Shown here: positions 10,979 through 44,663 of the stretch, in pieces
How the letters are laid out: every line of letters starts with the position of its first letter
Position numbering within the stretch: position 1 is the first letter of the stretch
Origin: Candidatus Heimdallarchaeum aukensis
GTDB lineage: Archaea > Asgardarchaeota > Heimdallarchaeia > Heimdallarchaeales > Heimdallarchaeaceae
Direction: 5' to 3'
Length of the DNA stretch: 64,000 bases
Assembly (NCBI GenBank): GCA_021513695.1
Contig: CP084166.1
Location: 1,536,001 to 1,600,000 of the forward strand
Program-made: the position numbers and the translations under genes
Notes under the pieces: generated by a model
Database searches by the model: none
What the model was told of the DNA's origin: nothing
The model's input: only the letters and a program-made list of their open reading frames with translations

Positions 10979-11752
10979 ATGATAGATGTGACGACTTCTA
11001 GTGATAAGAGTAAACTAGAATTCAGCAATTTATTCTTTGCGACCATAGAACAAAGAATATCAGACTTATCTAGTTTTGACTCTTTGCAAAAAAAGAGAAG
11101 TGAAAGAATGATTATAGAACTTTCTCTCTTTTTCAATAAATTCTTCTCCAAAGAGATAGTACAAAAAACAGCTTTAGAACTTATCTTAAAATTAGAGAGG
11201 TTTTTCGAAAATGAAGTCAAATTACAGAGACTAACAAAAGTCCGAGTTGCACAATATTATTTAATATTGTTTGACACTAATCTTTCTCACCTAGGAGAAA
11301 AAATAACTCCAATACATCTTGAACTTTTAAAAAAGAATAAAATTATTCCAAAAAAAAGTAAAATATGTAGTTATCTAGAAATAAAGAAGAAACAAAAGGA
11401 GTTAGAAAGAAAAAAACTAATTCGGAAGGTTAATAATGTAAAATTTAGTGAATTGATTAAAAAACGTGTAAATAGTATCTTGCAAGAATGTGAAACAGAT
11501 GAGATTTTTAAAAATAAATTTGCCAACAAAATCAAAGAAAGAACCAATGTTCTTTTAAGTAAAGGAATAAAACCACATATCGATGCTAACCAAGCTGCAA
11601 TTGTTATCATTTTATCAATATGTAGAGATCTTAAAGTAGATAGAAAGATTTCAAAAAGAATAATGGAAAACTACTGTGAAAAGTATGATTTGGACAAAAA
11701 AAAGATTAGAAGGCAATATTATCAATTTAACAGACGAATTATAAGAGAGTGA
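10979..11752 (+). CDS. Hypothetical Lys-rich protein, possibly a cyclin-fold (TFIIB-like) protein without a Zn ribbon
   Basis: The C-terminal segment GIKPHIDANQAAIVIILSICRDLKVDRKISKRI...YDLDKKKIRRQYYQF resembles the second cyclin repeat of TFB/TFIIB. Weak, from memory. Confidence 0.3.
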   Translation: MIDVTTSSDKSKLEFSNLFFATIEQRISDLSSFDSLQKKRSERMIIELSLFFNKFFSKEIVQKTALELILKLERFFENEVKLQRLTKVRVAQYYLILFDTNLSHLGEKITPIHLELLKKNKIIPKKSKICSYLEIKKKQKELERKKLIRKVNNVKFSELIKKRVNSILQECETDEIFKNKFANKIKERTNVLLSKGIKPHIDANQAAIVIILSICRDLKVDRKISKRIMENYCEKYDLDKKKIRRQYYQFNRRIIRE

Positions 11753-11802
11753 TTTTCTAAATATAAAAGAGCGATTTTCTAAATATAAGAGAGTGATTTT
11801 CT
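11744..11802. repeat. Tandem direct repeat of about 22 nt, (A)GAG(A/C)GTGATTTTCTAAATATAA, 2.6 copies, at the end of the 10979-11752 gene and upstream of purP
   Basis: agagagtgattttctaaatataa / aagagcgattttctaaatataag / agagagtgattttct, read directly. Confidence 0.6.
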
Positions 11803-11882
11803 TGTTAACAAAATTTTTCATTAAGAAAAGTGCAATAACTTTCTATCAAAAATTTATTATAATTTTTATTTAAATGTAAATT

Positions 11883-13037
11883 ATGAATTCAAAAAAGAAT
11901 GATCCACTTGAAGAAAAAGATATAGTTGTTAAACAGACTCTTACAAGTGGACCTCTATTTAGTGAATTACTTGAACGATATAATAAAGAGAACATAACTA
12001 TTGGTGTTTTAGGTTCTCATTCTGCTTTAGATGTTTTAGATGGAGCAAAAAGAGAAGGATTTAGAACCTTAGTTGTCTGTGAAAAAGGGAGAGAAGAGCC
12101 ATATATCCGATTTAAAAGGATAATAGATGAGATTATTACTCTGGACCATTTTTCTGATATTTTTGATATTCAAGATGATTTAATCAATAAGAACACAATA
12201 TTTGTTCCAAACAGGAGTTTTACTGTTTACTGTGGAGCAAATAGAATAGAAAGAGGATTTAGAGTTCCAATTTTTGGAAGTAGAAATCTATTAGGAGTAG
12301 AAGAAAGACTAGGACCACACAATTATTACCAGATTTTGGATCAAGCAACTATAAAATATCCACGAGTTTATAATTCTCCTGATGAGATTGATGGCCCTGT
12401 AATAGTAAAAATGCCTCATGCAAAACAAAGAGTTGAAAGAGGATTTTTCATTGCCAAAAATAAAGAGGATTTCGAAAAAGAGTTTGAAAAAAGAGTCATA
12501 GAGGGAATAATAAAAATAGACGATTTAAAAGAAGCTTCTATAGAAGAGTTTGTATCGGGTGTTCCATTCAACTTCAACTTTTTCTATTCACCACTCTTTG
12601 ATAGAGTAGAATTAATGGGTATTGATAGGAGATTTGTAACTGACTTAGATGGAATTGTTCGAATCCCAGCAGAACAACAACTTAAGTTAGGATTAAAAGA
12701 AGAGATGAAAGAGATAGGTAATTTTGCTGTTACTCTTCGAGAATCAATGCTTAGATATGTTTTTCCAATGGGTGATTATTTTGTTGAAGCAACAAAAAAA
12801 CTCTATCCTCCAGGAATAATAGGGCCCTTTGCACTACAAACAATGGTAACAAAGGATTATGAATTCAAAGTTTTTGATGTAAGTATGAGAATGGGGGGAG
12901 GAACAAATTCATTCATGGGAATTGGTAGTAATTATTCCTCAATATACTGGGGAGAACCAGTTTCAGCTGGAAGGAGAGTGGCAATGGAAATTAAATTTGC
13001 TGTAAAACAACAAAGGTTAGCTTACATAGTCACTTAA
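11883..13037 (+). CDS. purP: 5-formaminoimidazole-4-carboxamide ribonucleotide (FAICAR) synthetase PurP, ATP-grasp
   Basis: N-terminal LGSHSALDVLDGAKREGF (PurP signature region), ATP-grasp C-terminal half, and purine-biosynthesis neighbourhood (guaA downstream). Confidence 0.65.
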   Translation: MNSKKNDPLEEKDIVVKQTLTSGPLFSELLERYNKENITIGVLGSHSALDVLDGAKREGFRTLVVCEKGREEPYIRFKRIIDEIITLDHFSDIFDIQDDLINKNTIFVPNRSFTVYCGANRIERGFRVPIFGSRNLLGVEERLGPHNYYQILDQATIKYPRVYNSPDEIDGPVIVKMPHAKQRVERGFFIAKNKEDFEKEFEKRVIEGIIKIDDLKEASIEEFVSGVPFNFNFFYSPLFDRVELMGIDRRFVTDLDGIVRIPAEQQLKLGLKEEMKEIGNFAVTLRESMLRYVFPMGDYFVEATKKLYPPGIIGPFALQTMVTKDYEFKVFDVSMRMGGGTNSFMGIGSNYSSIYWGEPVSAGRRVAMEIKFAVKQQRLAYIVT

Positions 13038-13299
13038 TTGCAGAAAAATGCAATAATTGTTTTTTACCATTTTAAAAAAACAAGAAAGATTTATACAATC
13101 ACCTATTTTTCTCATATTTTTGTCATCGTCAGACTCAGAGAAAAGTTTGTATTTGCAAAATGTTGTAAAGATGTTTTTATGGAAAATCTTTGAAAAAGGC
13201 TATAAAAAAAGCGAAAATGATAAGAATGAGCAAAATTGAGTTAGAAAAATAACTAAAAAAATATATACCATTCATTTTCGGTTGGTTTGAGGACCAATC

Positions 13300-14295
13300 A
13301 TGATAATTAGTACTGTTGGAAGCCATTCTGCTCTCCAAATTCTTTATGGAGCGAAAAAAGAGTCATTTTCAACAAAGGTTTACTGTTTGAAAGGCAAAGA
13401 ACAACTCTATAAAAGATATCCAGTTGCAGACCAAATAATTACATTAGATAGTTATAGTGATCTTTTAGATAGGAAATATGAGGGAGAAGAAATTTTTGTT
13501 CCTCATGGTTCTATTATTGCCACTTTAGGAAAAAGAGCACTTGACATTCCTATCCCAATGATAGGAAACAGAGAAGGAATGTATTGGGAGATGGTAAGAG
13601 AAAAAAATTTAGAATTACTAAACAAAGCAAAAATTAGAACACCTTATACATATAAACCAGAAGAAATTGACCGATTATGTATTGTTAAGTTTCCAGGAGC
13701 AAAAGGAGGAGATGGTTACTTTTTATGTTCAAGTTATCAAGAGTTTGAAGGAAAAATTGATACGATAATCAAAGAAAAAAAAGTCTCAGAGGAAGAAGCT
13801 TCGAATGCTCAAATTCAGGAATACATTGTGGGCGTAACAATGTATCCTCACTATTTTTACTCTCCAATCTTCGATAGAGTGGAGCTATTAGGAATCGATC
13901 GTAGATATGAAACCAATGTTGATGCATTAGGAAGACTCTCACAGTCATTCTCTAAAATTTATCCAACTTATACAGTAGTTGGGAATCAACCGTTAATCGC
14001 AAGAGAATCACTTCTACACAAAATATTAGATTACGGAGATTTGCTCCGAGAAGTGTCAGTAGACTCTTTTCATCCAGGTTTAATTGGTCCCTACTGTATA
14101 GAGATGGCATTAACTGATAAGGAAATTGTCGCTTTTGAATTTACCAGTAGAATTGTCGCTGGAACAAGCTTATACATCTCAGGTTCCTTATACTCAAAGA
14201 TATTATTTGATGAAGAAATGAGCATGGGAAGAAGAATTGCAAGAGAAATAAAACTCGCTAAGGAACAAAATAGATTAGATGATATTATTTCTTAA
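13300..14295 (+). CDS. PurP-family paralog (FAICAR synthetase-like)
   Basis: Shares [39 protein letters not shown] and other blocks with the upstream PurP (YSPLFDRVELMGIDRRF). Confidence 0.6.
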
Positions 14296-32945: not shown

Positions 32946-34148
32946 TCATTTTTTTAGTGTTTTAATAATTGTTACAGGAAGATGGTAGAGTACTTTTCTT
33001 AAAAACCTTCCATAGTCTAATATTCCCATTATCATCTTACCTACTAAGTCAGCTAATTTATCATCTTTAATAGCTAAATTGACAATTAGCTCCATTCTTC
33101 TCAAAGTTTTATATAGAAAGTTTTGGAGAAATAGCCCTGTTTTGCTTAAATCTTTACCAAAATCTTTCATCCACTTTTTCTGATAAGCTTTCAACGGTTT
33201 ACCATATTTTTTATTGTTGTATATAGCTTCTGCAGCAAATTTTCCTCCAGAAATACAATAATATAGTCCTTCACCTGTTACTGGACTAACAAATCCTGCA
33301 GCATCACCTACTAGCAAGAGTTTATGAAAAACGGATTTTTTTACAGGTTTCTTAAAAACTAGTGTATAGGACTTTGCTTTGGCTAATTTGATACCAGAGG
33401 GAATAAGATTCATTCCTTTTAACTGTTCAACAAATCGTTCATATACATTTTTTGGGCCAGTTTCTTTAATATCGACCCATGTAGCTCCAATACCGATGTT
33501 GATGTAACCTTTTTTGATGAAATACCACCCATACCCTCTGGGAACAACTCCAAAAAAGATTTGCAAGCTAGTCTTTTCTATACCTAAATCAGCTAATAAT
33601 TTCTGTTCGATTTCAGTTTCTGAATTAACACATATAGCGAGATAACCCTCTGGCCAGCGAGATCTAATACCCAGAGAACGAATTAACTTATTATTTTGAA
33701 CTCCTGTGGCAAGAATAACATAATTTGCAGTGATTATTCTTTTTGTGGTGACAATAGTGTATATATCATTATTGGAATCATGTTTTATTTCTAGAACTGC
33801 TTCACCATCAAAAATTATAACACCTTGTTCTTGAGCGTCACGAGCCATAGCTTCATCAAACTGTTCTCTAATAACAAAATAACCTTTGTTGCCCCTATTA
33901 ATGAAATGTTTAAGAGACGGTGAATAGATAGTAATATTGTCTATTGAACAATTAATAGACTGTTTGGCTTTTTCACCTAATAAGGATAAAGTTCTATAAG
34001 ATAAAGCTCCACCACAAGGTTTGTCTCTGGGATAAGCCTTTTTTTCAAATAAAATGGTTTTCAGGCCCATTTTTGCACAATAATAAGCTGATGAAGAACC
34101 AGCAGGCCCTCCTCCAATAATCGCAACATCATATAATTCGTTTGACAC
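32946..34148 (-). CDS. Geranylgeranyl reductase family flavoprotein (digeranylgeranylglycerophospholipid reductase-like)
   Basis: YDVAIIGGGPAGSSSAYYCAKMGLKTILFEKK FAD-binding N-terminus; about 400 aa; LLVGDAAGFVSPVTGEGL motif. Confidence 0.75.
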   Translation of the reverse strand: MSNELYDVAIIGGGPAGSSSAYYCAKMGLKTILFEKKAYPRDKPCGGALSYRTLSLLGEKAKQSINCSIDNITIYSPSLKHFINRGNKGYFVIREQFDEAMARDAQEQGVIIFDGEAVLEIKHDSNNDIYTIVTTKRIITANYVILATGVQNNKLIRSLGIRSRWPEGYLAICVNSETEIEQKLLADLGIEKTSLQIFFGVVPRGYGWYFIKKGYINIGIGATWVDIKETGPKNVYERFVEQLKGMNLIPSGIKLAKAKSYTLVFKKPVKKSVFHKLLLVGDAAGFVSPVTGEGLYYCISGGKFAAEAIYNNKKYGKPLKAYQKKWMKDFGKDLSKTGLFLQNFLYKTLRRMELIVNLAIKDDKLADLVGKMIMGILDYGRFLRKVLYHLPVTIIKTLKK

Positions 34149-34592: not shown

Positions 34593-36575
34593 ATGAACAT
34601 GAGCAGAATTAATAGTCTTTATAAAATTGAAGGCAACAATTATAATAAATTAAAACATGAAAAGTATTCATTTATTACAGATAACAATTTTAGGGATAGT
34701 AATTATAAAGAAAAAATGAAACAAAAATTAAATAATAACCAGCTGAATAAAAAAATAAAATCAGAAATAAGTTTTGATGTGGTTTTTGATAAAGATTGGG
34801 TAATTAATGAATCAATTACAGTTGTAGGAAAAACTATATTACTAAAAGGAAATCTAATTGTAAACTCAACAGGGAATATCACAATAGAGAATTCAATTTT
34901 AATATTTAACTCTTCGTGGATAGTTAATAATGGAAATCTTGTAGAAGAAGCTTTACAGATTAGAATTCTTGGAGGTAAAACTATTTTTATTAATACTACA
35001 ATATCAGTTTTAGTTCCATTTGTAGAATTAAGTTATAATCAAATACGTAATAATTACTTTACGATAAGCGCAGAAAAATCTTCCCAGTTGTACTTTATAA
35101 ACAGCGAATTGAAACATTTAGGAATTATAGATAACATAAATAGTGGGATAAATGTTAACCAAATAAGTGAGTTAAAACTAGAAAATTGTAATATTAATGC
35201 ATTATGGGGAATTCTTTATGCTAATAATACAGACAGAATCGTAATCAATAATTGCAAATTAAACTCAAGCTTGAGGGGAGATATGAGATTTGGAACAAAT
35301 TATACCATGGTAACTCTAAATGGTGGAATTGAACATATAATTACACACAACAATTTCTTTAGAAATGAGGAAACAAAGTCTATAGAATATTCAGAAGAAA
35401 AAATAGACAGGCTTGTTATCTTGAATTCAAAGAACAGTATTATTTCAGAAAACACATTTAAACAAGCAAGATCTTATGATAATTCCTTTGGTCTAAATGT
35501 TAGAAACTGCACTTCAACGATAATTAATAACAATAAGGGACCATCAATGCACATGCATTTAAAAGATTCTAGAAATATTACAATAACACAAAATCACTTT
35601 GGGCAACTAATGGTTCATAATACCTGCGAATTGTTACTTAAATTCAACATAGCTGAAAATCTGGAACTCGCTAACTGTTCTTATATAAACGTCAATTACA
35701 ATATTTTTAATGCTACAAAGGAAAGAATCTATGATATAGGATCTTGCGTTTTTCTAATGGGTTCAAATGAATATATTAATATTTCATGTAACATTAATGC
35801 AGTACCTATTTTGGAAAGTTCATTTTATACAATAACAGCAGAAATAAAGAACAGTTTCTTTTATATGAATAATCAAGTTGGCCCCATATATATAAATGAT
35901 TATCCAGATTTCTATGAGAAAGTGTTTAATTTCTCAATAGAAAATAAAAGAGAAATAGTAATAGAATACCCAAAACTATCAGTAAATCAATATTACAGTT
36001 ATAACAGTCAAGGTAATTTCTATTCAGCCGATATACAAGCAAGTTTAGAAAATATATTAGAAGATTTTAACAACGATGGTATAGGAGATGCATCCTTTCC
36101 AGTATCGTCCGTTCCTATAATAATGGATGAAAATCCATTAATGTTCCCCATTACGTTTAATAATAATTTCGATCAAAAAGCCCCAACTCTTAATCATAAA
36201 AATTATTTTCCAGGGGGCGATAATTCTATTTATGATACCATCTATGCTAGTGTAACTGACAATTTTATGTTGGCTACAATTGTAGTAGCTTATGATTTAG
36301 GTTCATCTGGTTCATGGACTTTTAAGACTATGATAAAGGATGAATTTACAGGAGAATTTATTGCAAAAATTCCTAAATTGACACAAGGGATAAATCAATA
36401 CTACTTTATTGTATGTGATATTTTTGGTAACGAAGCGAAAAGCGAAATTTATACTTATAAGGTTCCAATTATTACTTCACAGATTTCATGGCAAATCTTG
36501 AATTCCTTTCTAGGAGTATTACTTTTGATTTTTTATCTGAAAAAAACTAAACTCAAAAGGGTTCAAAAATGTTAA
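34593..36575 (+). CDS. Large secreted or surface protein with parallel beta-helix repeats and a C-terminal TM anchor
   Basis: Repeated N-rich beta-helix-type segments (NNCKLN, NNNKGP, TQNHF). C-terminal LGVLLLIFYLKKTKLKR anchor. Similar architecture to 7350-8993. Confidence 0.5.
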   Translation: MNMSRINSLYKIEGNNYNKLKHEKYSFITDNNFRDSNYKEKMKQKLNNNQLNKKIKSEISFDVVFDKDWVINESITVVGKTILLKGNLIVNSTGNITIENSILIFNSSWIVNNGNLVEEALQIRILGGKTIFINTTISVLVPFVELSYNQIRNNYFTISAEKSSQLYFINSELKHLGIIDNINSGINVNQISELKLENCNINALWGILYANNTDRIVINNCKLNSSLRGDMRFGTNYTMVTLNGGIEHIITHNNFFRNEETKSIEYSEEKIDRLVILNSKNSIISENTFKQARSYDNSFGLNVRNCTSTIINNNKGPSMHMHLKDSRNITITQNHFGQLMVHNTCELLLKFNIAENLELANCSYINVNYNIFNATKERIYDIGSCVFLMGSNEYINISCNINAVPILESSFYTITAEIKNSFFYMNNQVGPIYINDYPDFYEKVFNFSIENKREIVIEYPKLSVNQYYSYNSQGNFYSADIQASLENILEDFNNDGIGDASFPVSSVPIIMDENPLMFPITFNNNFDQKAPTLNHKNYFPGGDNSIYDTIYASVTDNFMLATIVVAYDLGSSGSWTFKTMIKDEFTGEFIAKIPKLTQGINQYYFIVCDIFGNEAKSEIYTYKVPIITSQISWQILNSFLGVLLLIFYLKKTKLKRVQKC

Positions 36576-37616: not shown

Positions 37617-38045
37617 ATGGGAAAATATCGATTGCTTGAAGAGGAGACCACTGGTGATTTTGCATTTGAAGCATATGGTTCTTCTTTAGGAGAATTGTTT
37701 AAGTATGCAGGGTTAGCTACAATGAGTGCAATGGTCGACATTTCTCAACTTAAAGGAGACCAAGAATACTCATTCGAAATAGAATCGTCTAATCTTCAAA
37801 TGCTTCTTTATGAATTTCTCTCCGAAATAATCTTTGTTAAAGATGTGGAGATGGTATTTTTTACAGATTTTGAAATTGAGATAATAGAAAACAGTGGTTA
37901 TAAACTTCTTTGTAAAGCAAAAACAACGCCAATAGATAGTTTAAAACAAGACCACTTTACTGATGTAAAAGCTGCAACTATGCACCATTTAGTTGTAGAA
38001 AAACAGGGTACACAATGGTATTGTAAAGCAATTCTGGATCTCTAG
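37617..38045 (+). CDS. Archease (RtcB cofactor/chaperone family)
   Basis: 142 aa. N-terminal LEEETTGDFAFEAYGSSLGELF matches the archease pattern (LEHTADvg.eayG.sleE.F), and the length is right. Confidence 0.6.
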   Translation: MGKYRLLEEETTGDFAFEAYGSSLGELFKYAGLATMSAMVDISQLKGDQEYSFEIESSNLQMLLYEFLSEIIFVKDVEMVFFTDFEIEIIENSGYKLLCKAKTTPIDSLKQDHFTDVKAATMHHLVVEKQGTQWYCKAILDL

Positions 38046-38123: not shown

Positions 38124-38606
38124 TTACACTATCCTTTGTTTTCCTCCAGGAGGATTAATGAAAAATACTGTTAATAGTAATAGAAATATCCCTACAGATT
38201 CCTTAAATGTTACATTATTTACAATGTCTTGTGGTAATCCTTCTCTAAAGGCTGTAATTGCCTGGAAGCCAAAAAACACTATAAAGAGTTGTATAAAGAA
38301 ATATAGTATAACTGTGATAAATGCTCCTCTTATTAGATATCTCAAAAGTTTTCTATCTTCAGCTCTTCTTACTCTACTTAACAAATAATCTGTTACTAAT
38401 AATGATGAAGCTGTTAACACTATTGCACCAAATAGTGGAAAAGCAATTACTAAGCTAATATATCCTACCTGATTTAGTTGCACAATTTCACTGAGATAAT
38501 AATAGTGTGGTAATTGTGCAATCATGGATATTCCAAATAAGATTAAAATACTAGGTAAAGCTGCTTCTTTGTTCCAAAATCTTGATTGTTCACTCATAGC
38601 TTTCAT
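38124..38606 (-). CDS. Hypothetical integral membrane protein (4-5 TM)
   Basis: Hydrophobic throughout. No motif recognised. Confidence 0.4.
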   Translation of the reverse strand: MKAMSEQSRFWNKEAALPSILILFGISMIAQLPHYYYLSEIVQLNQVGYISLVIAFPLFGAIVLTASSLLVTDYLLSRVRRAEDRKLLRYLIRGAFITVILYFFIQLFIVFFGFQAITAFREGLPQDIVNNVTFKESVGIFLLLLTVFFINPPGGKQRIV

Positions 38607-38679: not shown

Positions 38680-40311
38680 TTAATGCATATCTTCCTCAAA
38701 AGAATAACCTTTTTCTATTCTAAATTCGCAGTAATTGTATCCTGTTCCATGACATTTTGTTTCTGTAACAATTGGTGGGTCTTTCAGCAGTAATGCTAGT
38801 CTTCCTGCAATGTATCCTGAAGTGAAGTCACACAGCGTTTCACCTTTGCTTTCTCCATCTTCGGTAAGATTTATTCCAGAGGAATAGGCATTTTCATAGA
38901 TTCTAATGTACATTTCATCTTCGTCCTCCCCATCTATGACTTCAACAAAAGAATACTCTCTTTTTAGGATATTTGTAGGATGAGTGAGATAAAGTTTCAA
39001 GATTTCAACTGCTTTTTTTAGCGATTCGATAGGTAAACTTTCTTCTTCTAGTACATCGTAAATTATTGTTTTACCTGGTCCAATTACACCCAACTCTCTT
39101 CCTGCAGAGTATAGTAGAGCTCCACAGAATTTATCTCTGAACTTAAGTGACATTATCTGTTGTTGTAAGATGCTTATATGCACGTAATCCACGTCATTTG
39201 GTCGTAAAGCGTTAGTCATAAGTAAAGATTCAAATCCATTTTGACTTGTTTCATGAATTAGTTCAAAAAACATTTGCTTACGATATTCTGATTTCGGAAG
39301 ATCTCCTAAGTACTGAATGTTCTTTTTACTTTCATCAATTTCTTTTACTTTATATGGAGCTTTTCCTGGTTCTTTTCCTATATATACCTCAATCTCAAAT
39401 TCACAGTAAGGATCGCCAAGCCCTTTGCACTTTGTTTCCACAACAGATGTAGCAGAACCAGTCATTGCTTCAACCGTACCTGCAATTTTTCCTGCAGTAA
39501 AGTGACACAAAGGTTCTCCTACGTTAATTACTCCAGAAACAGTACAAAGATCATGAATTCTAAGTGTAGCCTTATAATTTTCAATACTTGCTATATCACA
39601 GTGAGTAGCTTGATAAATTGGAACATCGCTATTATGACTATACAATTTGGCTAATGCGATTAGAACTTCTTGAAAACGTTCTTCTGGATTTACAGCTTGA
39701 ACATTAGGATTAAGCACTGTTAGATAGTAAGGGTCTGCACCATAAATCCCTAATTCTCTTCCACTTTGATAAAGTAATTGAGGTACTAATGGGTCTAAAG
39801 CGAGTAATGATAAAACAACTTGCTGATATACGCTGATATGGCAATAATCCCCGATAGTTTTTCGAACAATATTCTGAGAAATGAGAGAAGAGATGGTATT
39901 TTTTGTAAGAACCATCATACTTTCTTTTCTCTGAGTTTTTTTATCAGAAGCTACCATCAAAGGAAGAATATGACTCCACAATTTGTCTTTGATATCGTCT
40001 TCAGTTATCATCCCTTGTGCAATTACGCTGTCATTCATCATAATAACAGGTACTGACATTACATTATATTGAGAAGCAATCTCAGGTTCCTCTGTTATGT
40101 CTACTTTTGTTACACTCACAAGATTTTTTAGAGAGGTCCCTGCTACTTGCTCTACAACATGTTCTACAGATGGGCACGCAAAACATGTAGGGCTTGTAAA
40201 TAGTAATAATCGAACCTTAGATTGCATTTCTTCTTCTGACATAGTAACCGCATTTACAAATTTCTTAATACTTATTATTCGTTTATATTGAAAAAGATTT
40301 CTTCGATGCAA
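38680..40311 (-). CDS. Thioredoxin/glutaredoxin-like domain fused to two V4R (Bet3/TRAPP-like) domains
   Basis: N-terminal CFACPS thioredoxin-type CxxC; two repeats ending CHFTAGKIAGTVEA...DPYCEFEIE and CDFTSGYIAGRLA...YNYCEFRIE, which match the V4R C.F..G...G pattern. Confidence 0.5.
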   Translation of the reverse strand: MHRRNLFQYKRIISIKKFVNAVTMSEEEMQSKVRLLLFTSPTCFACPSVEHVVEQVAGTSLKNLVSVTKVDITEEPEIASQYNVMSVPVIMMNDSVIAQGMITEDDIKDKLWSHILPLMVASDKKTQRKESMMVLTKNTISSLISQNIVRKTIGDYCHISVYQQVVLSLLALDPLVPQLLYQSGRELGIYGADPYYLTVLNPNVQAVNPEERFQEVLIALAKLYSHNSDVPIYQATHCDIASIENYKATLRIHDLCTVSGVINVGEPLCHFTAGKIAGTVEAMTGSATSVVETKCKGLGDPYCEFEIEVYIGKEPGKAPYKVKEIDESKKNIQYLGDLPKSEYRKQMFFELIHETSQNGFESLLMTNALRPNDVDYVHISILQQQIMSLKFRDKFCGALLYSAGRELGVIGPGKTIIYDVLEEESLPIESLKKAVEILKLYLTHPTNILKREYSFVEVIDGEDEDEMYIRIYENAYSSGINLTEDGESKGETLCDFTSGYIAGRLALLLKDPPIVTETKCHGTGYNYCEFRIEKGYSFEEDMH

Positions 40312-40488: not shown

Positions 40489-41694
40489 GTGACAGATATA
40501 ACCAAAATTGAACGAGTTGCAAAGTTGTTAAAAAGAGAAAGAAAACTGCGTCTAGCAAGATTAAATGATGTATATATGAGGCCTATTGAGGGTCCGACTG
40601 ATCGTCTTGTAACTAGCGAAAAAAAAGATTATATAATGTTAGGTAGCTATTCATATCTAGGTCTAATTAATCACCCAGAAATCAAAAAAGCAGCAAAAGA
40701 AGCTATTGATAAATATGGAACAGGGGCTGGAGGAGTAAGATTACTTACAGGAACACTGGATTTACACAAAAAACTTGAAAGAAAAATAGCTGAATTCAAG
40801 AATGCAGAGGATGCTGTAGTGTATTCAAGTGGTTATGTTACCAACGAAGCTATTTTATCTAGTATTTTTGGGAAAGGAGATCTTATTATTATTGACCGAT
40901 TTGCTCACGCAAGTATTTACAGTGGATGTACTCTTTCAAAAGCTGAATGGACAAGATTCCAACATAATGACATGGAAGATCTAGAAAGAGTTTTGAAAGA
41001 GAATAGAGAAAAATACGATAACATCGTTATTGCCGTCGATGGTGTTTACTCAATGGATGGAGATGTAGCTCATATGCCTGAAATTATCGAACTAGCAAAA
41101 GAATATGATGCTTTTACGATGGTTGATGAAGCACATGCCATTGGTGTTTTAGGTGAAACAGGAAGAGGAGTCGAAGAATATTTTGGATTGAAAAAAGATG
41201 ATATTGATATAAAAATGGGAACATTAAGTAAAGCCATTCCTTCTGTTGGCGGTTATATTACTGGAAAAAAAGAACTAATGACATTTTTAAGATACAGTTC
41301 TAATCCTTTTATTTTCTCCGCTGCTTTACCTCCACCTAGTGCTGCTGCAGCTTTAAAAGCTTTTGAAATCATAGAAAATGAACCAGAGCGAATAAAGCAG
41401 GTTCAGCATAATGCTAAAGAGTTCATAAAAGGTGTAAAAGAATTAGGCTTTGATACTCTAAAAAGCAAAGATACTGCCATTATTCCTGTTATTATAGGCC
41501 CAGAAGTAAAGACATTTCGCTTTGCACGAAAATTAGAAAAAGAAGGAATAATTGTTCCACCAGTCGTATATCCTGCTGTCCCTAGAGATGGGGGAAGATT
41601 AAGGTGCTGTGTAATGGCTACACATACAGAAGAAGACATGCAGAAAATACTAGAAAAATTTGAAAAAGTAGGAAAAGAATTAGAAGTAATATAA
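40489..41694 (+). CDS. Alpha-oxoamine synthase family PLP enzyme (glycine C-acetyltransferase Kbl / BioF / serine palmitoyltransferase-like)
   Basis: 401 aa. GTLSKAI PLP-lysine block, DEAHAIGVLG, and the class-II aminotransferase fold character. Confidence 0.7.
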   Translation: MTDITKIERVAKLLKRERKLRLARLNDVYMRPIEGPTDRLVTSEKKDYIMLGSYSYLGLINHPEIKKAAKEAIDKYGTGAGGVRLLTGTLDLHKKLERKIAEFKNAEDAVVYSSGYVTNEAILSSIFGKGDLIIIDRFAHASIYSGCTLSKAEWTRFQHNDMEDLERVLKENREKYDNIVIAVDGVYSMDGDVAHMPEIIELAKEYDAFTMVDEAHAIGVLGETGRGVEEYFGLKKDDIDIKMGTLSKAIPSVGGYITGKKELMTFLRYSSNPFIFSAALPPPSAAAALKAFEIIENEPERIKQVQHNAKEFIKGVKELGFDTLKSKDTAIIPVIIGPEVKTFRFARKLEKEGIIVPPVVYPAVPRDGGRLRCCVMATHTEEDMQKILEKFEKVGKELEVI

Positions 41695-42271: not shown

Positions 42272-43138
42272 TTACACAAAAACTGATCGTAATTTGTAAA
42301 CTATACTAGAAAATGAAAGAACTTTTTTTCTACGAAGAATAGCTTCTCTTGTAAAAAGATCTACATAAGCAAAAAAACCATTTACTAAAGGACCAGGATT
42401 AATAAGCATAATATTTTTTTCAGTTTGAATAGCTTGTATTTCATGAATGTGCCCACAAAAAACAAAATCAAACAATAATGATTCAAAAATAAAAGAGGTG
42501 ATTTCTTGATTTCCTGCGTGATAGTTTCTTGAAGGAATTAGATCAATATGTGTATTCTTGGGGGGTTCATGGAAAAGACCAATAAATAGTTTATTTTCAT
42601 TCTTCTTTTTAAGAAGAAGAGCTTGTTCTTTTAGTTTAAGTAAATCTTTTCTTATAATGCTTATGTCTCTATTTGTAGGTGTTTGAACAGATGAGTATTC
42701 AGCTTTTTGGCAATACCCATACCCTAAAACAATAAATTTGTCATGCTCAACAATGCTTGATTCGATAAAAATTAAATTCGAATTTTGTTCTGTTTGTTTT
42801 TTAATATATGTAATTACTTCAGGAATATCTGTATTTCCGTGTGTAAAGAACACAGGTTTATTTAATCCACGCAGAAAATTCAGAATTTTCTTGGTTGTTT
42901 GTAATTGAAAATCAACAAATTCCTTATATTTTTCTCCAAATACAAGTTCCATGTATTTTTTTCTACTAATTCTTTTATATTTGATAATTGATTGAAAAAT
43001 AAGAGGTATACAAATAGTTCCTGCTATGTCTCCAGCAATAAAAATCACATCAACCTCTTCTAGTTCCTTTCTTAATCGTCTTAATAACTTTAATGACCCA
43101 TGAATATCCGCTATAACGATAGCTTTCAACTTACTCAC
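42272..43138 (-). CDS. Calcineurin-like metallophosphoesterase
   Basis: IADIHGS, AGDIAG, THGNTD and GHIHE motifs. Overlaps the end of hutH by 8 nt on the same strand. Confidence 0.7.
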   Translation of the reverse strand: MSKLKAIVIADIHGSLKLLRRLRKELEEVDVIFIAGDIAGTICIPLIFQSIIKYKRISRKKYMELVFGEKYKEFVDFQLQTTKKILNFLRGLNKPVFFTHGNTDIPEVITYIKKQTEQNSNLIFIESSIVEHDKFIVLGYGYCQKAEYSSVQTPTNRDISIIRKDLLKLKEQALLLKKKNENKLFIGLFHEPPKNTHIDLIPSRNYHAGNQEITSFIFESLLFDFVFCGHIHEIQAIQTEKNIMLINPGPLVNGFFAYVDLFTREAILRRKKVLSFSSIVYKLRSVFV

Positions 43139-44663
43139 CAGAAATTGAGAGTAATTCTTCTTCTGTAAATTTTAGTAGGCCCCCTGTCTTTACTTGTTCA
43201 ATAACCCAATATACATCCTCATCATATCGTCTATCATTAGCAATAGGCGGTATTTTTTTTCTGATGTGATTATAGATTTTCATGTTCACTGGTGAGAGTT
43301 TTCTCTCTCCTCGAAATTCCAAAGCTTGACATGCAGTAAAAATTTCTATCGCAATCATTTGTGAGACTATATCTCTTATTTTGTAAACTTTTTTACTAGA
43401 AGTTAACCCCATACTTACATGGTCTTCTTGATCAGCTGAAACAGGTGTATTATCTATCGATGCAGGAGTGCTTAAAATTTTATTTTCTGCTGATAAAGCA
43501 GCGTCAGCATATTGAAGAATCATCAATCCAGAATTTAATCCTGGTTTCCCTGTTAAAAAGGCTGGAAGACCAGAAAGCGCGGTATTTAATAATTGATTAA
43601 CTCTTCTTTCAGATATTGTTCCTAATTCGGTTAAAGCAATAGAAAGAAAATCCATGACTAAAGAAATTGGTTCTCCATGAAAATTTCCACCAGAGAAAGC
43701 ATGGTTATGGTTTACTGAAATTAAAGGATTGTCAGTAGCAGAATTCATTTCTACTTCTACTACACTCTTTACATATCTAATAGTATCGAGAACTGCCCCA
43801 TGAACTTGAGGAGAACAACGTATAGAATAGGGATCTTGTACTCTCGGAGCTTTAATGTGTTCAATATCACTTCCTTTTATAAGTTTTAACACTGTATCAG
43901 CAAAGTCAGATTGCCCCTTATGTTTTCTATTTTGCATGATGAAAGGAGAAAAAGCATCAGTATTTCCATGAAGTGCTTCTAAAACTAAAGCAACCGCTAT
44001 AGCTGAATGTTTCAAAATATTTAAAGAATCATAAATCGTATGAGCTGCAAAAGAAGTAAGAACATGAGTACCATTAACTAAGGAAAGACCTTCTTTTGAT
44101 ACAGGTGAGATAGGTTCTAGCCCCAACTTTGCTAGAATTTCTTTGCCTGTTAAAATTTGATCATTGTATTTTACTTTTCCTTCTCCTATTAACACACTAG
44201 CAATATAGGATAAAGGAGCGAGATCACCACTTGCGCCTAAAGAACCAATGCTAGGAACCAGAGGAATAACGTTATTATTTACTAAATCCACATAAAGCTC
44301 GACAGTGGATAAACGTATTCCACTGCTACCTTTACAATAAGAATTAATCGCAATAACCATAGCTCCTTTAACTATTTCATCAGGAAGAAACTCACCAAAA
44401 CTTATGCTATGAGAACGAATAATATTTTCTTGTAACTGTGATTGCTCATTAATTGAAATAAGTACATTTGCTAGTTTTCCAAAACCTGTTGAGACACCGT
44501 AGATGGGATCGTTTTCGGCGATTAAATTTTCAATTGCATTACGTGATTCTCTTATTCTTTCTTTACTGTCATCACTTAGTCGGATTTTATATCCTTGTCT
44601 TGTTATTTTGATTAAATCGTTTATATTTAGAGAGTTTCCATTAAGGACAATAAAATTGCTCAT
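43131..44663 (-). CDS. hutH: Histidine ammonia-lyase
   Basis: GSLGASGDLAPLS contains the ASG triad that forms the MIO cofactor; about 510 aa. Confidence 0.85.
   Translation of the reverse strand: MSNFIVLNGNSLNINDLIKITRQGYKIRLSDDSKERIRESRNAIENLIAENDPIYGVSTGFGKLANVLISINEQSQLQENIIRSHSISFGEFLPDEIVKGAMVIAINSYCKGSSGIRLSTVELYVDLVNNNVIPLVPSIGSLGASGDLAPLSYIASVLIGEGKVKYNDQILTGKEILAKLGLEPISPVSKEGLSLVNGTHVLTSFAAHTIYDSLNILKHSAIAVALVLEALHGNTDAFSPFIMQNRKHKGQSDFADTVLKLIKGSDIEHIKAPRVQDPYSIRCSPQVHGAVLDTIRYVKSVVEVEMNSATDNPLISVNHNHAFSGGNFHGEPISLVMDFLSIALTELGTISERRVNQLLNTALSGLPAFLTGKPGLNSGLMILQYADAALSAENKILSTPASIDNTPVSADQEDHVSMGLTSSKKVYKIRDIVSQMIAIEIFTACQALEFRGERKLSPVNMKIYNHIRKKIPPIANDRRYDEDVYWVIEQVKTGGLLKFTEEELLSISGE

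Follow-up and report, generated by a model that had tools for sequence, protein, structure and literature searches.

The window analysed here is a stretch of 64,000 nucleotides of Candidatus Heimdallarchaeum aukensis (contig CP084166.1), and contains on its minus strand a gene for a protein in which a thioredoxin (Trx) domain is followed by two V4R modules (Table 1), in the following called the Trx-V4R-V4R protein. The listed open reading frame (ORF) extends from 38680 to 40311 and gives 543 amino acids (aa) when read from a TTG codon. An ATG at 40242, 23 codons inside this frame, yields a protein of 520 aa with the N-terminus MSEEEMQSK. This ATG is the probable start, because homologues of 517 to 524 aa begin at the same place and a 99 % identical protein also has 520 aa; all residue numbers refer to it. 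A first-pass annotation made from the sequence alone had recognised the frame, its domains and its motifs, which all are present, but the strand (minus) and the probable start codon had to be corrected. The complete genome of Candidatus Heimdallarchaeum endolithica PR6 (CP084167.1) contains the locus with 99 % identity.

The next gene on the same strand begins 73 bp downstream, separated by a gap without an oligo-T run, and codes for a membrane protein. Its polytopic character and its adjacency had already been noted in the first pass and were confirmed.

Table 1 Features of the Trx-V4R-V4R locus; positions refer to the window, residues to the protein of 520 aa (AF2 AlphaFold2, PDO protein disulfide oxidoreductase, pLDDT predicted local distance difference test)
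Feature	Positions	Strand	Basis
Gene for the Trx-V4R-V4R protein, 520 aa	38680..40242, including stop codon	minus	ORF list; ATG at 40242; homologues
In-frame 5' extension up to TTG, translation unlikely	40243..40311	minus	in mechanical ORF only; homologues start at MSxxE position
Thioredoxin-fold domain, small archaeal MJ0307/PDO type, aa 8-95	39958..40221	minus	
CxxC active site, C20-F-A-C23	40174..40185	minus	direct translation; conserved in family
Helical tether from Trx to V4R module 1, aa 96-120, within helix 81-120	39883..39957	minus	AF2: pLDDT 53-74, <50 at residues 96-100
V4R module 1, aa 121-290, more strictly conserved	39373..39882	minus	Pfam V4R; repeat; fold matches Thor-TRAPPC3/Bet3/PoxR/MopR/MJ1460; conservation table
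Motif R-x3-G-D-Y-x-H-x4-Q of module 1, R127...Q140	39823..39864	minus	translation RKTIGDYCHISVYQ; conservation table
Predicted zinc site 1, C246-x22-E269-x2-C272-x7-C280	39403..39507	minus	translation; aligned with PoxR/MopR ligands by hmmsearch
Inter-module linker, aa 291-316	39295..39372	minus	pLDDT ~60, without regular structure in model; length varies in alignment
V4R module 2, aa 317-512	38707..39294	minus	Pfam V4R second stretch; repeat of module 1; modelled packed on module 1
Module-2 copy of R...D-Y-x-H...Q-Q, R347...Q361, less conserved	39160..39204	minus	alignment and residue tables
Predicted zinc site 2, C471-x22-E494-x2-C497-x7-C505	38728..38832	minus	translation; kept in most members
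Orphan membrane protein, 160 aa, four hydrophobic segments, no Cys	38124..38606	minus	ORF list; hydropathy

Domains, conserved sites and predicted structure

Both domain types are recognised by Pfam well above the cut-offs. The N-terminal part matches Thioredoxin_3 (PF13192) with an E value of 9e-11 (42 bits, cut-off 24.8) and PF00085 (thioredoxin) with 34 bits (cut-off 23.5), and V4R (PF02830) is matched in two stretches (E 2.4e-27, 95 bits, cut-off 31). The V4R profile also matched all of the 20 modules tested from the Trx-V4R-V4R family. Within the window protein the two modules are paralogous internal repeats with 32 % identity over about 195 aa (E 5e-25). The domain order first read from the sequence, a Trx-like domain and two V4R domains, is thus correct, and the V4R matches in the profile search are strong.

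The Trx domain is closest to the MJ0307 thioredoxin (1fo5, E 2e-11) and resembles also the C-terminal unit of the PDOs; in these best sequence matches (1fo5, 1a8l, 1j08) the FTSPxCxxCP context and the cis-proline can be aligned. C20, C23 and the cis-proline P65 are invariant in an alignment of 27 sequences reaching down to 30 % identity, where they coincide with the active site of 1fo5, and about 66 of the 70 aligned representatives retain them. The CxxC is missing in two representatives (P0080, P0083), and two others are truncated N-terminally. The central dipeptide is highly variable (CFAC, CYAC, CGPC, CKFC, CAKC, CAPC and others). The domain looks catalytically competent and shows the hallmarks of an active thiol-disulfide oxidoreductase; with CxxC and cis-proline conserved it is neither a degenerate nor a KaiB-like Trx fold. 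In TIGR00411, the family of the MJ0307 thioredoxin, it reaches 54.8 bits and thereby not the equivalog cut-off of 92.75. Judged from this score it is a related domain and no orthologue of that family, from which it differs further, as from the PDOs, by the fusion to V4R and by the CFAC dipeptide with its wide variation across the family.

Each V4R module contains the motif C-x22-E-x2-C-x7-C with the same spacing as C149/E172/C175/C183 of XylR. A zinc site of the type C-E-C-C has been demonstrated in PoxR, MopR and DmpR, and zinc binding is predicted for the Trx-V4R-V4R protein as well. Direct translation bears out the motifs given in the first-pass annotation, namely CFAC in the Trx domain, CHFTAGKIAG...ETKC...YC in module 1 and CDFTSGYIAG...ETKC...YC in module 2. 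In module 1 a [C/D]-E-C-C site is found in every one of the approximately 70 aligned representatives.

A further conserved element is the polar motif R-x3-G-D-Y-x-H-x4-Q in module 1, whose residues R127, D132, Y133, H135 and Q140 are nearly invariant in the same set of representatives. In the copy of module 2 the pair D-Y is replaced by N-E in subfamily B, one of three subfamilies distinguished below. The R...GDxxH...Q motif is present also in tandem V4R proteins of DPANN archaea which have no Trx domain. Since it is common to these relatives, the motif seems to belong to the own function of the V4R cassette, either ligand binding or an interface.

The full-length AlphaFold2 model, calculated from the alignment of 27 sequences, has a mean pLDDT of 82.9 and a predicted template modelling score (pTM) of 0.75, and a construct of the two modules (403 aa) reached a pTM of 0.87. 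Such a value is out of reach for two domains of 190 aa that are oriented independently, so the modules are predicted to form one rigid body, an intramolecular pseudo-dimer; interdomain distances and the geometry of the pseudo-dimer were judged from the pTM values alone. Proteins of the V4R/Bet3 fold normally pair between chains via their N-terminal helices, and the modelled pairing within one chain probably resembles these inter-chain dimers of Bet3/TRAPPC3 and PoxR. The tether in front of module 1 is probably mobile, because its model confidence is low, and could allow the Trx domain to reach the V4R sites.

Relation to TRAPP and to other tandem V4R proteins

The modules have the V4R/Bet3 alpha-beta fold, which is common to them and the Bet3 family of TRAPP. 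The best structural neighbour in the fold comparison was Thor-TRAPPC3 (7yh2, 14.6), followed by DmpR (12.8), Bet3 (2cfh_A, 12.4), PoxR (12.3), MJ1460 (12.0) and Trs31/TRAPPC5 (11.5), and Foldseek returned the same mix of V4R and Bet3-type structures from the PDB. At the level of sequence, however, no relation to TRAPP appeared. The Pfam family TRAPP (PF04051) was not matched at E ≤ 10 by the whole protein or by any of the 20 modules, whereas the control, human TRAPPC3, gave 8e-44. In hhalign the probability was 0.1 % against TRAPPC3 and 0.06 % against a Bet3 profile, a negative which is weaker than the PF04051 test as only metazoan orthologues with 71 % identity or more went into this profile. 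Sequence searches of the PDB that started from the entire protein or from the profile of the entire family gave thioredoxins only, and a profile of the modules was used instead; it matched MJ1460 (1.8e-7), PoxR and MopR, but at E ≤ 10 no Bet3 chain and no Thor-TRAPPC3. The TRAPP-related protein envisaged in the first-pass annotation therefore holds for the shared fold and not for the sequence. The Trx-V4R-V4R protein belongs to the V4R family, with an ancestral fold common to Bet3, and membership in Bet3/TRAPP fails the sequence tests.

Thor-TRAPPC3 (7yh2, 7yh3) has the same fold and binds zinc via cysteines, but is a single-domain protein of about 155 aa without Trx, shows no profile similarity and has its zinc ligands at different positions. 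A sequence-level relation is also missing to the PF04051 proteins Bet3/TRAPPC3, Trs31/TRAPPC5 and Trs33/TRAPPC6, and nothing found here points to a TRAPP complex, GEF activity or palmitoylation. In mouse TRAPPC3 a hydrogen bond is located where the zinc site would be (Tran et al.). Heimdall possesses separate single-domain TRAPPC3-like and longin-TRAPPC3 proteins (Tran et al.), and these are the better TRAPP candidates. By their sequence, the V4R modules described here are ordinary ones of the prokaryotic type, with the nearest relatives in DPANN archaea. For studies of eukaryogenesis this means that the V4R/Bet3 fold, when met in an Asgard genome, does not by itself amount to a TRAPP signature.

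Protein clusters with the architecture Trx + V4R + V4R number 49, the most distant at 30 % identity; an exhaustive hidden Markov model (HMM) search gave about 36 representatives after clustering at 50 % identity, and 53 loci were located among the GTDB species genomes. Because the genomes were scanned with peptide patterns specific to the family, elsewhere it counts as not detected and its absence is not proven. Nearly all named sources are Heimdallarchaeota/Heimdallarchaeaceae, including Hodarchaeales and Candidatus Hodarchaeum mangrovi. Loci syntenic with those of Heimdall are present also on a few contigs under the labels Thorarchaeota, Bathyarchaeia or Hermodarchaeota, and these labels outside the lineage are probably due to mis-binned or mislabelled sequences of metagenome-assembled genomes. 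Contigs or proteins of this kind are L014 (JBHLQZ010000002.1), L048 (DATKZI010000026.1) and P0342, which are labelled Thorarchaeota, Bathyarchaeia or Pacearchaeota, yet show Heimdall-type synteny or 93 % identity to the membrane protein of the window. In the literature on V4R with thioredoxin or Asgard no description of the Trx-V4R-V4R architecture was found, and the database labels are restricted to "V4R domain-containing protein", "thioredoxin family protein" and "predicted hydrocarbon binding protein". The domains of the protein are known, their clade-specific combination is new.

Outside the family, the module profile finds as nearest relatives tandem V4R proteins without Trx from Aenigmatarchaeota. 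Further matches are tandem V4R proteins of Altiarchaeales with an N-terminal Zn-ribbon, a KaiC-ATPase with two V4R, and two V4R with Roadblock/LC7; bacterial-type combinations of V4R with SpoIIE and of Cache with V4R were matched, too. The DPANN tandems (Aenigmatarchaeota MBU5557894.1 cluster; Altiarchaeales OYT40194.1) resemble the Heimdall family in two V4R modules of the same order, the GDxxH...Q motif and the Cys sites. They differ in that Trx is missing, that some have a Zn-ribbon instead and that they belong to other archaeal lineages. Their N-terminal module prefers the HMM of module 1 and their C-terminal one usually that of module 2. This match in order makes the V4R duplication seem older than the Trx fusion, and Heimdallarchaeia seem to have added Trx to a pre-existing tandem V4R cassette. 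With Trx, Zn-ribbon, KaiC or Roadblock as fusion partner, the tandem V4R is a cassette in repeated use and as such a lead to what V4R pseudo-dimers sense.

Among these other fusions, the KaiC-like ATPases with tandem V4R (P0050-P0053, P0125) are about 585 aa long and belong to the weaker matches. P0113 (L062 2580-4028) and P0153 are metagenomic proteins with two V4R modules and a C-terminal Roadblock/LC7 domain (V4R 2e-38, Robl_LC7 2e-8). In these proteins a single chain holds both a Bet3-fold domain and a Roadblock domain, which is related to the longin fold. Their modules are devoid of the N-terminal GDYxH motif found in the Trx-V4R-V4R family, and in L062 the gene of P0113 lies between two aminotransferase genes.

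Gene neighbourhoods in three subfamilies

For the analysis of the context, 493 neighbouring ORFs from 44 loci were clustered. The loci fall into subfamily A, the clade of the window (25 loci, at least 68 % identity to the window protein), subfamily B (13 loci, 36-42 % identity) and subfamily C (6 loci, 30-32 % identity, including Hodarchaeum). All 25 loci of subfamily A encode a membrane protein of 155-166 aa on the same strand, 74-105 bp downstream, and the wider synteny is conserved as well (thermosome and glycine-cleavage genes). No homologue of this membrane protein occurs in the loci of groups B and C. It is a possible operon partner, limited to the window's clade. A family match in Pfam or NCBIfam was not obtained, and only three close homologues were found in the homology search. 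A thiol partner of the DsbB, VKOR or CcdA kind was rejected, as the protein has no cysteine and no family match. In a relative whose Trx-V4R-V4R protein is 80 % identical the membrane-protein gene is displaced by 2 kb; there, two Snf7 (ESCRT-III) genes, which are missing in the window, lie directly upstream of the Trx-V4R-V4R gene (L001 4472-5753, L002 1007-2303).

The downstream gene in subfamily B is a different one. In 10 of the 13 loci it encodes an AhpC/TSA peroxiredoxin of the thioredoxin-dependent PrxQ/Bcp type, at a distance of 0-155 bp and on the same strand. Subfamily C has, in three of its six loci, a Roadblock/LC7 gene as divergent neighbour, and a GT87-like membrane protein is encoded convergently. 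The Roadblock/LC7 proteins concerned (L051, L053, L054) have 114-138 aa (Pfam 8.5e-16), and their genes are located about 290-480 bp upstream on the opposite strand. Downstream, five of the six loci share a conserved pair of unannotated genes without significant Pfam match, coding for about 253 aa (c27) and about 598 aa (c24). Next to P0046, a 35 % identical homologue, a gene for a small GTPase of the Arf/Ras/Roc type follows about 500 bp downstream (L005 7969-8529), and a urocanase gene lies upstream. Taken together, the context provides one clear redox hint, PrxQ, and weak hints at GTPase regulators.

Several other neighbours were recorded. Genes of the histidine-utilisation type recur at a distance of a few kb from the family in different clades, with a histidine ammonia-lyase in the window (43131-44663, minus strand, Pfam 2e-178), an amidohydrolase in relatives and the urocanase next to P0046 (L005 3064-5052); in L001 genes of this type lie at 11011-12540 and 12839-13557. 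A link to histidine utilisation was discarded, because the ammonia-lyase and amidohydrolase genes belong to the window's clade and urocanase to P0046, which is inconsistent across clades; the recurrence may be coincidence or loose synteny. The divergent gene upstream of the Trx-V4R-V4R gene (40489-41694, plus strand) encodes a pyridoxal-phosphate-dependent acyltransferase of the BioF/Kbl family, with glycine C-acetyltransferase, 8-amino-7-oxononanoate synthase and serine palmitoyltransferase as best NCBIfam matches, all of them below the equivalog cut-offs. Just past the membrane-protein gene an archease gene is found (37617-38045, plus strand, Pfam 6e-33). At other loci of subfamily A an ORF judged by eye as RtcB-like lies about 4.8 kb downstream of the Trx-V4R-V4R gene (cluster c8, 11 of 25). 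A 660-aa Asn-rich protein without Pfam match, which has a hydrophobic segment at its C-terminus and may be a surface protein of repetitive sequence, is encoded at 34593-36575 (plus strand). The sole neighbour cluster common to the window's genome and subfamily C is a geranylgeranyl-reductase-like flavoprotein (Pfam GGR_cat, FAD_binding_3; 32946-34148, minus strand, in the window and about 4.1 kb downstream in L051, L053 and L054). The distances are similar (about 4-4.7 kb), but the cluster occurs in only one of the 25 loci of subfamily A, so that the shared proximity is probably due to chance. A scan for promoters and terminators of the bacterial type, which is not suited to archaeal promoters, yielded no counts above background.

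A putative thiol redox switch and its competitors

The reading favoured here, tentatively, is that of a cytoplasmic zinc-thiolate redox switch or sensor which is specific to Heimdallarchaeia and has a built-in reductant. The closest precedent is MsvR, a protein of methanogens composed of a helix-turn-helix (HTH) domain and V4R. The cysteine spacing of both modules (26, 8) equals that of C206/C232/C240 in MaMsvR, where the three V4R cysteines confer redox sensitivity. With one of them exchanged (C206A), DNA binding no longer depends on the redox state, and the oxidised MsvR cysteines are reduced by the thioredoxin system of M. acetivorans (thioredoxin reductase and Trx). MsvR (NF053755) is also the best NCBIfam match of the V4R part (3e-15, model positions 168-236). 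The equivalog level was not reached (56.6 bits, cut-off 220), and no HTH family was found in Pfam and NCBIfam. Unlike MsvR, the Heimdall protein has no DNA-binding domain, carries two V4R in one chain in place of a homodimer and contains Trx in cis, and its hosts are Heimdallarchaeia. Across Heimdallarchaeia the fusion of Trx and V4R has remained stable, much like a Rosetta-stone fusion. With the conserved CxxC and cis-proline, the cysteine spacing of MsvR and PrxQ downstream in one subfamily, the redox-linked sensor is the better supported of the two possibilities which the first-pass annotation had left side by side.

In such a switch the tandem V4R pseudo-dimer would be the sensing or binding body with one Zn(Cys3Glu) site per half. 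Oxidants would attack the zinc-thiolate cysteines of the modules, either directly or by a peroxiredoxin relay, and their oxidation would change the conformation of the pseudo-dimer and thus the binding of a ligand or partner. The tethered CxxC would then reduce the V4R cysteines and reset the switch, as the free thioredoxin system does for MsvR; the assumed thiol-disulfide exchange between Trx and V4R follows this analogy. The output should be the binding of a partner or ligand, because an output domain is not present. Zinc-thiolate redox switches that are reset by thioredoxin are represented by Hsp33 and RsrA, in which oxidised zinc-bound cysteines change the conformation. The likeness to them is a functional analogy in the proposed working principle only, as the folds are unrelated.

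Several points weigh against the switch. The C-E-C-C zinc site is regarded as structural in PoxR, MopR and DmpR, and in P0025, P0036 and P0038-41 the first cysteine of module 1 is replaced by aspartate, by which metal binding would still be possible but a disulfide would not. The Cys site of module 2 is gone in P0062, P0065 and P0073 though the CxxC is retained. That the CxxC and the V4R Cys sites are lost together was considered and rejected on the basis of these three proteins and of P0080 and P0083, which have no CxxC and keep the site of module 1; P0083 has lost that of module 2. The near-invariant R-D-Y-H-Q motif is not explained by a pure redox model and points to a specific ligand or interface. 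Moreover, the protein itself lacks an output domain, the Trx domain could serve external clients instead, and the reach of the CxxC to the V4R sites is predicted from pLDDT and pTM of a model. Finally, among the 493 ORFs of the 44 loci no neighbour is common to all subfamilies, and synteny is subfamily-specific only.

Some of these points fit better to a thioredoxin that is gated by a ligand, which is the main rival, somewhat doubtful in its own right but nearly as plausible as the redox switch and compatible with it. The V4R pair would sense a small, probably hydrophobic or aromatic molecule, the zinc would be structural, in agreement with the aspartate in place of the first cysteine in some lineages, and the ligand would gate Trx toward clients such as PrxQ. 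Cavities of the V4R/Bet3 fold bind phenols or palmitate, the ligand-bound MopR, PoxR and DmpR are good fold matches, and the invariant polar residues, common to relatives without Trx, suggest a specific binding site. The fusions of the tandem cassette to other effector-like domains (KaiC ATPase, Zn-ribbon, Roadblock), with SpoIIE in the case of a single V4R, are those expected of a sensor module. On the other hand, no ligand can be named, the conservation of the pocket residues of phenol sensors is not established, and PrxQ, although directly downstream in subfamily B, is confined to this one subfamily. In contrast to the sensor (A) domains of PoxR, MopR, DmpR and XylR, the Heimdall protein has by Pfam no XylR_N, AAA+ sigma-54 or HTH domain and combines a tandem in one chain with Trx. 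The precedent of MsvR, with cysteines directly linked to thioredoxin, would be left unused. An enzyme is less likely than both of these readings and on the whole improbable. The Cys/metal cluster of module 1 would be catalytic, as suggested for the V4R relatives ATC hydrolase and MetOD1, and Trx would feed reducing equivalents into the conversion of a small metabolite, either a reductive reaction or one at a C-S bond. Reductases are commonly served by fused Trx domains. The invariant R, D, Y, H and Q of module 1 look like an active site, and module 2 is relaxed, as in pseudo-dimeric enzymes, but relatives without Trx retain the same motif. The Cys cluster is common to V4R, ATC hydrolase and MetOD1 (Galperin et al.). 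Matches to ATC_hydrolase (PF14196) occur in four of 20 modules (best E 0.012) and as precomputed matches in P0017, P0018 and P0033; they are weak and lie under the Pfam thresholds. There is no conserved metabolic operon around the gene, and no V4R protein with demonstrated enzymatic activity was met in the literature examined.

A scaffold in the manner of an early TRAPP is likewise less likely than the redox switch and the ligand-gated thioredoxin, and decidedly improbable. In this case a Bet3-like pseudo-dimer, a relative of the Bet3-Trs33/Trs31 pairs, would act with Roadblock/longin proteins and small GTPases at membranes, and Trx would be an accessory. The rigid pairing of the modelled modules agrees with it, as the Bet3 family and Thor-TRAPPC3 pair via N-terminal helices, and in the window's clade the gene conserved downstream encodes a membrane protein. 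Roadblock/LC7 in three of the six subfamily C loci and the Arf/Ras-like GTPase about 500 bp downstream of P0046 would suit it, too, but such genes are abundant in Asgard genomes, and adjacency in one or two lineages is weak. Fusions V4R-V4R-Roadblock exist as well (P0113, P0153), but their modules are without the N-terminal motif of the family. The sequence searches speak against a scaffold of this kind (PF04051 negative, hhalign about 0.1 %, PDB profile search without Bet3 and Thor-TRAPPC3), bacterial V4R sensors are equally good fold matches, and the geometry of the zinc site is of the PoxR type. Furthermore, the closest relatives are the tandem V4R proteins of DPANN archaea, and the single-domain TRAPPC3-like and longin-TRAPPC3 proteins are better candidates in Heimdall. 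The least probable version is a scaffold gated by redox, in which a single-chain dimer of the Bet3 type couples thiol redox via Trx to Roadblock/longin proteins, small GTPases and the adjacent membrane protein. If this were true, thiol redox would be coupled to membrane and GTPase-regulatory machinery in the archaeal lineage closest to eukaryotes.

The Trx-V4R-V4R family is a clade-specific innovation of Heimdallarchaeia including Hodarchaeales, the Asgard lineage from which eukaryotes descend according to the inference of Eme et al. (2023). For V4R proteins in general, control of the Cys3 site by thioredoxin has so far been based mainly on the biochemistry of MsvR. If the fused Trx domain acts on the V4R cysteines, as the redox switch proposes, the family would provide independent genomic support that this site does more than hold a structural zinc and is a redox element under the control of thioredoxin.

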